Positions 12,687-38,621 of a DNA stretch of 64,000 nucleotides are shown here, in pieces. Each line of letters begins with the position of its first letter. The first letter of the stretch is position 1. Location: assembly GCA_027623675.1 (NCBI GenBank), contig JAQBVF010000007.1, positions 45,675 to 109,674 of the forward strand, in the 5' to 3' direction. A program made the translations under genes and the position numbers. The stretch is from Chloroflexota bacterium (GTDB lineage: Bacteria; Chloroflexota; Dehalococcoidia; Lucifugimonadales; UBA3495). The notes under the pieces were generated by a model. It made no database searches. It was not told the origin of the DNA and saw only the letters and a list, made by a program, of their open reading frames with translations.

Positions 12687-12895
12687 CTACAGGCTCTTCG
12701 CCCTGTGGTCCAGGACGGCCCTCACTTGGGCGTCGGTCACCCCAGGGAACCATTCAAGAAACTGCGATGTCTGGGCCCCGTCCTCCAGATTCTCGAACAG
12801 CGCGGAAACCGGAACGCGGTTGCCACGAAATACCCAATCGCCGCTAACCCGCTGCAAAAAAGCACAACTGCTGCGCACGAAGACCAATCCAACAT
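12687..12895 (-). pseudogene. DUF433 antitoxin-like gene, frameshifted
   Basis: ATG 12895 gives MLDWSSCAAV; the continuation QRVSGDWVFRGNRVPVSALFENLEDGA..FLEWFPGV is in another frame, with the shift at the T-run near 12857-12862. Confidence 0.75.
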
Positions 12896-13012
12896 AGCCA
12901 AATTTTACCTGCCGTATATCCGCCGTTCAATTCGTCTAAATGCCTTCATCCCAACAACAAGTTTGTTGGGGGCCTCATCATCCGCAAACTCTGATCAATC
13001 TTTCCACACATA

Positions 13013-13232
13013 TCAGCGCCCTTGGAGAAACTCTTGGACGGTCATGTCTCTGGCGACCTGTCTGAGCAGTGGCGGGGCGATATCCCGGCCTTGATGAAAT
13101 GGGGACCGTGGTTGCGCGTCCATCGAGGTGTCCATTTCGCCGGTGCGATCCCCGTCTGCGAACCTCGACGAAACCAAAGCGAACCAGAATCGCGGCAACT
13201 TCGCGGGGGCGCAATACCGGGGAGTTACGCAT
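13013..13232 (-). pseudogene. hicA: HicA-family toxin, frameshifted
   Basis: PVLRPREVAAILVRFGFVEVRRRGSH..DGRATTVP in one frame; FHQGRDIAPPLLRQVARD in another frame from about 13100. Confidence 0.82.
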
Positions 13233-13237
13233 GCTGG

Positions 13238-13444
13238 CTACACTGTCACGCGTTGAGTGCCGACAAATTCTCCTTCCAGCTCAGGGTCCCCGTCCTCAAG
13301 CAGCATCGCGATGACCTCTTTCAAGTTTTCGTTTAATTCATCAAGGCTTGCCGCTTGGGAGTGGGCTCCTGGAAAACCAGGCACGTAACCGACATACAAT
13401 CCGGTCGCCGGATCCTTTTCGATAACCGCTGTGTATTCTTTCAT
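13238..13444 (-). CDS. hicB: HicB-family antitoxin, short form without a DNA-binding domain
   Basis: MKEYTAVIEKDPATGLYVGYVPGFPGAHSQAASLDELNENLKEVI; GAGGA RBS. Confidence 0.9.
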   Translation of the reverse strand: MKEYTAVIEKDPATGLYVGYVPGFPGAHSQAASLDELNENLKEVIAMLLEDGDPELEGEFVGTQRVTV

Positions 13445-13491
13445 GGTTGGTCCTCGGGCTAATGGAATCCACGGAACACAGGTGCCCACGA

Positions 13492-13541: not shown

Positions 13542-14081
13542 CTATTCCGGCTCGCGTAGCTGGGCGATTATCAGTTCTACGGCCTCTTTGGCCACGGAGC
13601 GCACCACGTCGGGCTCGACGTACTCGGTGAGTTCGGTCTTGGGCAGGACGACCATGGGCGCGTCGGGCATGCCGTTGCCCCGCATGGAAGCCTTGGCCAG
13701 GGTGGTGAACCGCTCGGTTACCAAGACCACCGAGGGCATGCCGCTCTTGATCAGTTTAACGCTGTCGTGGACACTCCACGCGGTGCAGGAACCTCAATTT
13801 GCCAGGCCGACTATGGCCAGTTGGGCGCGCGCCTCCACCTCGTCGAAGGTCGCTTGGGGAGCCGCCGAGGCCAGGGGGATCAACCTCTCAAAGACTTCGG
13901 TCACACCGTACTGTTCCTTGAGGATGATGCCGATCTGCTCGGAGATGATGTTCATGCTGGTCCAGCGGTTGTTCAGTATGGCGACCGTGGCGCCTTGCAG
14001 ATCGTTTATGTGGGGGATGTGGCCGTCCATGGGACGCCACGCCTCCGCCGCCGGGCTGAGGATCGACATCTTGTTGACCAT
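13542..14081 (-). CDS. UGSC-family selenoprotein, paralog 1 (Sec at UGA 13794-13796)
   Basis: ORFs 13794-14105 and 13542-13739 are in the same frame and join through TGA: IVGLAN-U-GSCTAWSVHDSVKLIKSGMPSVVLVTERF. AAGGAG RBS lies 7 nt before ATG 14081. Confidence 0.88.
13766..13780 (-). promoter_or_regulatory. Putative bacterial SECIS element
   Basis: mRNA hairpin CGUGGA-GUG-UCCACG starts 13 nt after the UGA. Confidence 0.65.
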
Positions 14082-14119
14082 GGCCATGCTCCTTCGCCTC
14101 TCCAAAGGTGAATCCGGAC

Positions 14120-36781: not shown

Positions 36782-37840
36782 TTAAGCGTGTTTGACGATC
36801 TCTTCCGTGGCCATCCGAGTGACGCCCCACCCGGCCAACCAAGCAGAATGACGGCCATCGCCTCCGGCAACAATGGGCACGATGTCGCTTGAAGAGCGCA
36901 CGATGGGCACCAGGGTCTCGGGGTTGGTCTCATCCACCCAACTGGGCCAGTTGCGGTTTCCATAGTGCGCTCGTCCCACCAACACCTTCATCGGCATTCG
37001 TGCGTTCTGGTAGACGTATTCCTGGATATCGGACTTGGACAGTCCTGAGGCGGCAATCTCTTCGGCATGCTCTGGGCAGATGACCAACACGATCTGGGCG
37101 CCGGTACCTATCTGGTAGTAATTCGAGATTCCAGTTGCCTTCATATTGCCAACGATCGTCTGCAATACCTCCAGTCCGGTGGACACGGTTGTCTCCATGA
37201 TGGTGTATACGCCCCGAACCGCCACCACGGTCACCGTGCTGGAGCCTGCGGGATAACCAAGCTGGATGTTTCTGGCCTCCCAGGGACTGCGCTCCTCGTT
37301 CTCGGCGAAGCAGAAGCTGTAGCGTCCGGGCGTGGCCAGCGTGGCCTTGTCCATGACCCCGGGTATCAGCCCACCCACATTGCGGATGACCAACCGCAGC
37401 GCCCTGCCGATGGCTGCATTCGCCCTGGAGCCCGGCCCGAAGCAGGCGGCATCACCGTTTATGCCCAGCTCCTTGGCTATGGGGCCGTTGACGATCACCA
37501 CCTGGGCTGCTCCACCGGTGGTTGCGGCGTTACCCCCCAAGTTGAAGTCCTTGTCCAGGGCCGCTTTCACCGCAGCGACCACCACTGGGAAATACTCCGG
37601 CTTACAACCGGCCATGACCGAGTTGATCGCTATCTTCTCCAGCGTCGCCTGGGAGTTCCGAGGCTGCATCGTGCCCAGGGAGAACGACGGGGCTCCGCCG
37701 TACCCGGCCAGCATCGCGCGCACTAGCGGTTCCGTGGGCGGCACCACCGGCAACCCGTCCGTCCATCCCTGGTCCCAGCAGTAGTCCTGGATGTCCTGGA
37801 AGGAATCGGATACCTCTACGCGCCTAGCATTTAGAGTCAC
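36782..37840 (-). CDS. Conserved uncharacterised 'DGLPVxPPT' protein, UGSC-associated partner, paralog 2
   Basis: GWTDGLPVVPPT, ATLEKIAINSVMAGC, GPGSRANAAIGRALRL, AENEE. Confidence 0.88.
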   Translation of the reverse strand: MTLNARRVEVSDSFQDIQDYCWDQGWTDGLPVVPPTEPLVRAMLAGYGGAPSFSLGTMQPRNSQATLEKIAINSVMAGCKPEYFPVVVAAVKAALDKDFNLGGNAATTGGAAQVVIVNGPIAKELGINGDAACFGPGSRANAAIGRALRLVIRNVGGLIPGVMDKATLATPGRYSFCFAENEERSPWEARNIQLGYPAGSSTVTVVAVRGVYTIMETTVSTGLEVLQTIVGNMKATGISNYYQIGTGAQIVLVICPEHAEEIAASGLSKSDIQEYVYQNARMPMKVLVGRAHYGNRNWPSWVDETNPETLVPIVRSSSDIVPIVAGGDGRHSAWLAGWGVTRMATEEIVKHA

Positions 37841-37950: not shown

Positions 37951-37979
37951 AAAAGAGGGGCCGGTCTGGCCCCTCTTTT
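37951..37979. terminator. Intrinsic terminator
   Basis: AAAAGAGGGGCC-ggtct-GGCCCCTCTTTT. Confidence 0.8.
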
Positions 37980-38010: not shown

Positions 38011-38553
38011 TTACTTCCCCGTGAGCAGTCCTACGATCTCCGGTGCGAAATCGCGGGCCATCTGCTGGACCTCGGGGATGGTCCTGGGAGCCAGCGGACT
38101 GGGCAGCACCACGATGCGGGCGCCCGGCATGCCCAGAGCAGTCGCCCTGGCGTGGGCTGCCCTGGTAAAGGTGCTGGTTATCACGCTGACGGAAGGCTTT
38201 CCCTTGGATTCTGTGATCACTGTGTCGTGGAGACCCCACGCTGTGCAGGACCCTCAATCCGCGATGGCGTGTATCACCACATCGCATTCGTCGACCAGCG
38301 ACTGAATCGTGTCGTCGGCACAGGGGGCGCTGTAGGTGAACTTGGTGGCGTAGACCACTTTTGCGGCGCCGTAGTCCTTGAGTAGCACCTCTTTCAGCTC
38401 GCCCAAGAAGGCGTCGGCGTGGTACTTGCGGTTCTCCAGCAGACCCACCACTTTGCCCTGCAGATCGGGCAGTGCGTCGCTCAGGCCCAACTCCTCGGGA
38501 ACATCCTCCGCGGTGGGATCCAGTATCTCAATCATTCGTGTTGCTTGCGCCAT
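38011..38553 (-). CDS. UGSC-family selenoprotein, paralog 2 (Sec at UGA 38254-38256)
   Basis: ORFs 38254-38553 and 38011-38220 join in frame: VIHAIAD-U-GSCTAWGLHDTVITESKGKPSVSVITSTF. Confidence 0.9.
38226..38240 (-). promoter_or_regulatory. Putative bacterial SECIS element
   Basis: mRNA hairpin CGUGG-GGUCU-CCACG starts 13 nt after the UGA, the same position as in paralog 1. Confidence 0.65.
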
Positions 38554-38621
38554 GGTCTCCCCCTGATAGATGTTTGCTCGGAAGTTTGCTTGGAGTTTGC
38601 TACCACCGCTCTAATGGGCAG

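Follow-up and report, generated by a model that had tools for sequence, protein, structure and literature searches.

Locus and reading frame

The stretch of DNA analysed here, referred to as the window, comprises 64,000 nucleotides (nt) of contig JAQBVF010000007.1 from a Chloroflexota bacterium (assembly GCA_027623675.1, positions 45,675 to 109,674 of the forward strand), and the subject of this report is a predicted selenocysteine (Sec)-encoding gene of the UGSC family on its minus strand. When positions 38553-38011 are translated in one frame, a product of 180 residues is obtained with a single in-frame TGA at codon 100, which lies in the context A-I-A-D-U-G-S-C-T-A-W-G-L-H-D, with D-U-G-S-C as residues 99-103. 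The features of the reading frame are as follows.

38011..38553, minus strand: predicted UGSC-family selenoprotein gene, 180 codons plus a TAA stop, with the ATG start at 38553-38551
38254..38256, minus strand: UGA codon 100, predicted to be read as Sec (the U of U-G-S-C); plus-strand letters tca
38557..38563, minus strand: Shine-Dalgarno-like GGGGGAG upstream of the ATG, seen in the 20 nt 5' of the start

A purine-rich, GGAG-like run is also found upstream of the start in all eight UGSC paralogues of the genome. Under translation table 11, the same region yields two open reading frames (ORFs) instead, of 99 and 69 amino acids (aa), the second of which begins with the GTG at 38220, and every one of the 120 best public relatives listed is annotated as a 99-aa hypothetical protein. 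Such entries are the expected output of gene-calling software that does not recognise the UGA, and they do not constitute independent evidence. The main gain of the present analysis is a correction of annotation, in that an orthologue group recorded as 99-aa hypothetical proteins is, on the evidence below, a 180-aa selenoprotein.

Family membership

Both curated models of the UGSC family are passed by the read-through protein, which scores 133.3 bits (cut-off 125) with the NCBIfam model NF041046, 'UGSC family (seleno)protein', and 162 bits (cut-off 25) with the Pfam model PF24696, 'UGSC', the latter covering residues 9-178 in one uninterrupted stretch. The motif residues U, G and C are invariant among 25 aligned sequences of the family. 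A 'UGSC-containing protein' was described as a selenoprotein with unknown function by Zhang and Gladyshev in 2007 (PMC1976440), and Table 2 of a 2008 paper on the Global Ocean Sampling (GOS) data places UGSC among the commonest selenoprotein families, with 255 Sec-containing and 21 cysteine (Cys)-containing forms (PMC2398784). A 'UGSC/Unknown_1' fusion is reported and a thioredoxin fold is suggested for UGSC in the same paper. The family also appears in two reviews (PMC9312934, 2022; PMC13188914, 2026), the more recent of which counts it among the families whose 'biological functions remain largely uncharacterized'.

The product of the window gene resembles the published UGSC proteins in passing both models, in its U-G-S-C motif, in its size of approximately 180 aa, in adjoining a large unnamed domain and in having an aquatic uncultured bacterium as host, and it shows no essential difference from them. 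As a member of a family of selenoproteins described since 2007-2008, the gene is unexceptional. The first-pass annotation of this DNA had spoken of a 'hidden' selenoprotein, a description that suits the database records of its relatives and does not suit the family, which was already in the literature. According to the GOS counts, UGSC ranks among the most abundant selenoprotein families of aquatic metagenomes. Three properties detailed below, namely the pairing with a partner protein, a domain homologous to the Sec-bearing part of GrdB and the eight-fold multiplication in a SAR202 genome, offer handles for a first biochemical test.

Conservation of the UGA and coding signal downstream of it

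Eight loci of the genome match the UGSC model. Every one of them carries a single in-frame TGA, and when the proteins are aligned these TGAs share one column despite identities of only 25-34% to the 38553-38011 product. One of these copies is also located in the window.

13542..14087, minus strand: paralog 1, the second predicted UGSC selenoprotein gene of the window, with its TGA at 13796-13794
contigs C13, C17, C35 (two), C20 (two, both in the window), C12 and C46: UGSC genes of the genome (G000)

Paralog 1 reads U-G-S-C-T-A-W-S-V-H-D at the corresponding site, possesses CGTGG...CCACG at the identical offset and shares 30% protein identity with the gene under study. Its score with NF041046 (79.2 bits) is below the cut-off, and it is therefore regarded as a divergent copy. 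For a draft genome of 3.07 megabases (Mb), eight UGSC modules represent a sizeable paralogue expansion.

Orthologues elsewhere were collected by a scan with the single protein, with one genome per species, which returned 80 loci with identities of 69-93%, and in all of them codon 100 is TGA. Their hosts are assemblies labelled Dehalococcoidia, SAR202 or Chloroflexota, plus one labelled Planctomycetaceae and one labelled 'uncultured bacterium'. In a sample of 301 genomes from the phylum, matches were detected in 33 genomes, and 57 of the 61 match rows carried one TGA (54 of 58 when three rows from the unpublished genomes G038 and G227 are set aside); the four rows lacking it comprise two fragments that miss the site, one Cys form (H-C-S-T-C, a fused relative) and one sequence in which the motif has been lost. 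The first-pass annotation had drawn on the two copies of the window only, noting that their TGAs are aligned while the rest of the gene has diverged, and had argued that a UGA shared in this way is beyond chance and indicates recoding. These observations were borne out, and the argument now extends to all eight paralogues and 80 orthologues, together with a coding signal after the TGA.

That signal was measured as the ratio of nonsynonymous to synonymous substitution rates (dN/dS) between the window gene and 79 of the 80 orthologues, one having been left out for an N. With dS at approximately 1, codons 101-178 had a median dN/dS of 0.107, compared with 0.177 for codons 26-99; the region after the UGA evolves as coding sequence under purifying selection. 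It might be argued that the TGA is a true stop, that only a 99-residue protein is made and that the 80 codons downstream are the decaying remnant of a pseudogene, which would agree with the uniform 99-aa annotation of the listed relatives and with the normal use of TGA as a stop codon by other genes of this bacterium, in which it terminates 198 of the 809 ORFs that reach 400 aa (24%). However, constraint is stronger after the TGA than upstream of it, the Pfam domain and the domain predicted by AlphaFold2 both span it, and it recurs at the same codon in every orthologue and paralogue, which makes a genuine stop very improbable.

The use of TGA to end 24% of long ORFs also means that this codon has not been reassigned genome-wide. 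An error of sequencing or assembly would find some room in a draft of this kind (48 contigs, with a completeness of 91.4% and a contamination of 5.71%), but the same TGA is present in 80 other assemblies, and the chance that either an error or a genome-wide reassignment accounts for the codon is close to negligible.

The codon immediately before the UGA (Asp-99, window 38257-38259) is GAT in all 80 orthologues, which may represent a context effect on Sec insertion. At position 91, Asp is more commonly encoded by GAC (62 of 80), unlike at codon 99.

Sec machinery of the genome

A genome without selABC had been named in the first-pass annotation as evidence that would speak against recoding. Searches of the genome identified selA (554.8 bits, cut-off 267.9), selB (contig C45; 347.7 bits, cut-off 242.25), selD (380.3 bits, cut-off 125) and, on contig C23, a tRNA-Sec whose Rfam score is 70.4 bits (gathering score 47) and which ARAGORN calls as tRNA-SeC with anticodon TCA. 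The selD match (L018, G000:C3:53424-54344) holds one in-frame TGA of its own, and the selenophosphate synthetase of this genome is probably likewise a selenoprotein, as judged from its reading frame.

A SECIS-type hairpin downstream of the UGA

Bacterial selenocysteine insertion sequence (SECIS) elements, for example that of Escherichia coli fdhF, are hairpins read by SelB that lie within the coding sequence just after the UGA and have a small apical loop starting with G. Two features of the window are relevant in this respect.

38226..38240, minus strand: SECIS-type apical hairpin, with the 5' arm CGUGG at 38240-38236, the loop GGUCU at 38235-38231 and the 3' arm CCACG at 38230-38226
38224..38240, minus strand: substitution-free block of 17 nt, at +17 to +33 from the U of the UGA, synonymous sites included

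The hairpin resembles such elements in being intragenic, in following the UGA at a short distance and in its small, G-initial apical loop; it differs from them in that only an apical stem of 5-7 bp is supported, without a supported long lower stem, and binding of SelB to it is putative. The gap between the UGA and the stem is 13 nt, the stem starting with the 14th base, and the gap to the loop is 18 nt. The first-pass annotation had placed the CGUGG/CCACG stem at +14 in both copies of the window, and the 13 intervening bases were found in each.

In all eight paralogues, a base pair joins the third position of the Trp or Cys codon to that of the codon preceding His, with G-C in four copies and C-G in the other four. 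Covariation was quantified for 26 distinct family sequences, obtained from 27 of the 28 motif-bearing loci (L038, unpublished, was left out), in which 93.4% of the cells of a 7-pair stem are paired, compared with at most 59.3% when the partner is slid by 1-3 columns. Cells changed on both sides numbered 16, against 3.4 +/- 1.5 in shuffled data, a value reached in none of 500 shuffles. Three pairs are altered on both sides, with the compositions UA 20/GC 4/AU 1/GU 1, GC 21/CG 4/GU 1 and CG 20/GC 6, and some of the paired changes shift the protein in concert, as when C...H becomes A...A through UGC/GCA changing to GCC/GGC.

Synonymous sites give a complementary picture. Codons 105-110 (GCG TGG GGT CTC CAC GAC) are each represented by one codon throughout the 80 orthologues (at codon 105, in 63 of 63 with Ala), compared with 1-1.9 bits of synonymous entropy at neighbouring conserved codons. 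Normalised synonymous entropy is lower for 12 codons between 101 and 116 (0.397) than for 68 conserved codons elsewhere in the gene (0.693; Mann-Whitney p = 0.003). Gly-107 is GGT in 80 of 80 sequences; three or four different codons occur at Gly-101 and at Gly-118, and because glycine codons vary freely at those two sites, codon bias is not the explanation. The block that is invariant in 75 distinct orthologue sequences corresponds to both arms, the loop and two bases beyond. The RNA is constrained beyond the constraint on the protein, and the support for the predicted hairpin is comparative and not energetic. The overlap of the stem with the conserved A-W and H-D codons, which the first-pass annotation had raised as a caveat, is thereby answered by the covariation and by the frozen synonymous sites of the 80 orthologues.

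A comparison between Sec and Cys forms, proposed at the same time, could be made in a fused subfamily with H-U-S-T-C in place of the motif, where six Sec genes fold with energies from -16.5 to -23.8 kcal/mol and the lone Cys gene, which keeps nearly the same residues in other codons, with -6.1 kcal/mol. The motif of this subfamily reads G-H-U-S-T-C-A-P-A-V-A-V-H and is accompanied by a different, longer hairpin, which its one Cys member has lost (Sec forms L051-L055 and L057; Cys form L149 in genome G292).

Passage through the UGA need not in principle involve Sec. A near-cognate tRNA could insert Cys or Trp, since bacterial UGA is leaky, or the two halves could be made separately, the second from the GTG at 38220 that opens the 69-aa ORF, and then assemble; moreover, the evidence for Sec at this codon comes from sequence and not from protein. 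Both variants fare poorly, however. The residues G-S-C-T-A-W-G-L-H-D between the UGA and the GTG are among the best conserved of the UGSC family and are therefore translated, a covarying hairpin with frozen synonymous sites is present where a bacterial SECIS element is expected, and the genome encodes the complete Sec machinery. In addition, homologues have Cys at the UGA column (the fused relative mentioned above and, in Table 2 of PMC2398784, the 21 Cys forms beside 255 Sec forms), and the aligned residue in GrdB-type proteins is likewise encoded by TGA. Taken together, read-through without Sec retains only a slim probability.

Predicted fold and relationship to GrdB

With a 25-sequence alignment, AlphaFold2 predicts a single domain for the UGSC protein with a predicted local distance difference test (pLDDT) score of 93.9 and a predicted template modelling (pTM) score of 0.86. 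The model is an alpha/beta structure in which a strand-helix unit occurs five times; U100 immediately precedes helix 101-116, and U100-x-x-C103 lies where the third long helix begins. This order of strands and helices would be flavodoxin-like rather than thioredoxin-like. No thioredoxin was present among the fold matches listed, which does not rule out a family outside the list, and a profile search of solved structures with UGSC returned nothing credible.

A more specific relationship emerged from profile comparisons with hhalign, in which the UGSC side consisted of 25 sequences. Against 27 segments of the GRDB superfamily from the phylum sample (a set that leaves out two unpublished loci), the probability was 96.5% with E = 8.4e-10 over 95 columns, and against the 11 full-length GrdB-type segments it rose to 97.3% with E = 1.9e-11 over 97 columns, covering UGSC residues 75-178 and placing U on U. 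The 16 short GRDB-like segments gave 78.6% and E = 1.7e-5 over 53 columns. As controls, a reversed alignment gave 4.0% (E = 0.01, 18 columns) and five column shuffles gave 0.1-0.2% (E = 0.31-0.58, 12-38 columns). Significance was reached only with the larger sets, such as those of 27 or 11 sequences; when only the three GrdB-like sequences of the genome were used, the result was not significant (about 1%, E = 0.056, 81 columns).

These alignments indicate that UGSC 75-178 is homologous to the C-terminal Sec domain of GrdB, GrdF, GrdH and PrdB, which are the selenoprotein B subunits of the glycine, sarcosine, betaine and D-proline reductases. Common to both groups are the spacing after Sec (E at +15, G at +18, P at +20 and T at +26, followed by H-P-x-G) and a Cys shortly after Sec. 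Compared with GrdB, UGSC is devoid of the N-terminal part of approximately 250 residues, and the partner of the UGSC gene is not a proprotein of the GrdE/PrdA type (PF09338). The Pfam model PF07355 (GRDB) matched neither the UGSC protein nor the 25 UGSC sequences at E values up to 10. The PF07355 model is 347 positions long, and every match to it stops at positions 343-347, directly ahead of Sec; because the model ends there, its failure to match is uninformative on the shared part, and it seems to cover only the portion of GrdB that precedes the UGA. On this profile evidence, UGSC shares the Sec domain of GrdB, yet it does not belong to the GrdB family.

Three GrdB/PrdB-like genes of the same genome are themselves cut at a TGA by table 11 (L148 on G000:C10, L147 on G000:C5 and L146 on G000:C18). 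Their read-through gives ...L-L-T-P-x-U-P-x-C..., and the frame continues for 117 (L146) to 238 (L148) residues past Sec. From their sequences, L146, L147 and L148 are probable further selenoproteins of this genome.

The partner protein

The UGSC gene is followed by a gene for a protein of 352 aa, and paralog 1 has a neighbour of the same kind.

36782..37840, minus strand: partner gene, downstream neighbour of the UGSC gene, 352 aa
11472..12524, minus strand: partner gene of paralog 1, 350 aa, 38% identical to the product of 36782-37840
37951..37979, minus strand: terminator-like hairpin between the UGSC stop and the partner gene, read from the letters, with a perfect 12-bp stem (AAAAGAGGGGCC/GGCCCCTCTTTT) and a loop of 5

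Searches of the partner against Pfam and NCBIfam produced no family match, even at E values up to 10. The genome contains nine copies of this family, eight of which pair with the eight UGSC genes, seven as adjacent genes and one as a fusion (contig C46), to whose C-terminal part the partner of the window aligns with E = 2e-51. In the phylum sample, many UGSC matches are found within open frames of 550-670 aa, and all eight of those read are fusions with the partner domain. From this fusion and adjacency, it may be presumed that the UGSC and partner proteins bind each other, and the partner family presumably corresponds to the 'Unknown_1' of PMC2398784. A relative search that scored the 8,000 candidates sharing most words found at least 7,979 relatives of the partner in public data, and all 120 source names among those listed are 'hypothetical protein'. 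In an alignment of 14 sequences, Cys79 and Cys177 of the partner are invariant, and the structure model built from 14 sequences has a pLDDT of 87.3 and a pTM of 0.90.

The possibility of a divergent GrdE/PrdA protein was rejected, since hhalign between 14 partner sequences and 12 PF09338 proteins gave E = 0.52 and a probability of 0.1%. Foldseek resemblances to class I fumarate hydratase, 'Toblerone' hydrolases and PrpD-like proteins, with template modelling (TM) scores of about 0.3, were treated as noise. Atlas clusters of the partner bear automatic names such as 'thioredoxin (fragment)' and 'thiol-disulfide oxidoreductase' without a Pfam family, and these were not relied on.

Proposed decoding and function

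The reading that we favour with high confidence is that 38553-38011 is one 180-residue UGSC selenoprotein gene whose UGA-100 is read as Sec through SelB and the hairpin, and whose product has a GrdB-type domain and most probably acts as a partnered subunit. Under the standard bacterial model, UGA-100 would be decoded as selenocysteine during translation, Sec-tRNA(Sec) being carried by SelB and brought to the ribosome by the intragenic hairpin that starts 13 nt after the UGA. The product would be a selenol/thiol redox-active subunit, with the unnamed 352-aa neighbour as the second part of a two-part enzyme; this is most probably how UGSC acts. U100 and C103 may form a selenenylsulfide redox pair. 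Our best guess for the activity of the UGSC-partner pair is a selenol/thiol-dependent reductase in which a GrdB-type Sec domain cooperates with a different catalytic partner.

Several points weigh against this reading. To begin with, Sec at UGA-100 is deduced from sequence alone. Orthologues and paralogues are related by descent, so that both the shuffle tests and tallies like 80 of 80 suggest more independence than exists. The single hairpin has a folding energy of -13.5 kcal/mol with z = 0.19, and 118 of 200 shuffled sequences are as stable. An extended lower stem, which single-sequence folds of the paralogues do draw, receives weak comparative support, with three pairs of which one is broken in 6 of the 75 distinct orthologue sequences; at E values up to 10, Rfam returned no family at the site apart from a chance snoRNA match; and the contrast between Sec and Cys hairpins involves one Cys gene only, from a different subfamily. 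With respect to the GrdB relationship, the GrdB segments were cut by hand around Sec before alignment, although hhalign is local and the controls were clean. Fold searches with the UGSC model returned generic three-layer alpha/beta folds of the flavodoxin, CheY and periplasmic-binding-protein type, with no match standing out and Z no higher than 11, and no convincing solved relative of the partner model was found (Foldseek TM of about 0.3; best VIA-align Z of 6.3), so the function is unreadable from structure. Finally, the terminator-like hairpin has T runs flanking it on both strands, which gives it the look of a two-way terminator (it was not listed by the pattern scan), and a promoter-like site was detected by pattern scan at 37916-37888 (minus strand), between the UGSC gene and the partner; given these two predicted elements, the genes may not be co-transcribed here.

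A broader proposal is that UGSC is a minimal GrdB-type Sec domain which, with the protein of about 350 aa, makes up a hitherto undescribed type of selenol-dependent reductase, separate from the Grd and Prd enzymes of the Stickland type, and that SAR202 multiplied it into eight modules in varied catabolic neighbourhoods for different substrates. We regard this as a speculative possibility, and the odds are rather against it.

Gene neighbourhoods

The flanks of five modules were checked and no constant third gene was found among them. The genes present there encode NHL propellers (two cases), luciferase-like monooxygenases (two cases), an AhpD/CMD-like protein, NuoE/NuoF-like proteins, a thiamine pyrophosphate (TPP) enzyme and a solute-binding protein. 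On contig C17, genes for a NuoE-like [2Fe-2S] protein and a NuoF-like protein with flavin mononucleotide (FMN) and 4Fe-4S sites directly follow the UGSC-partner module (L062 9482-11678, G000:C17:91481-93677), and the AhpD/CMD-like gene is located approximately 700 nt upstream of the same module. The NuoE/NuoF-like pair, which is present at one of the five modules checked, could be a route of electron input.

The ninth, unpaired copy of the partner (C26:103059-104144, 71% identical) is flanked by ORFs that were named by eye as helicase-like and dodecin-like. Between paralog 1 and its partner gene, three small ORFs of 83, 84 and 66 aa are present on the minus strand (window 12687-13489), which we take, by eye, to resemble an antitoxin-toxin pair of the HicB/HicA type and a DUF433-like protein.

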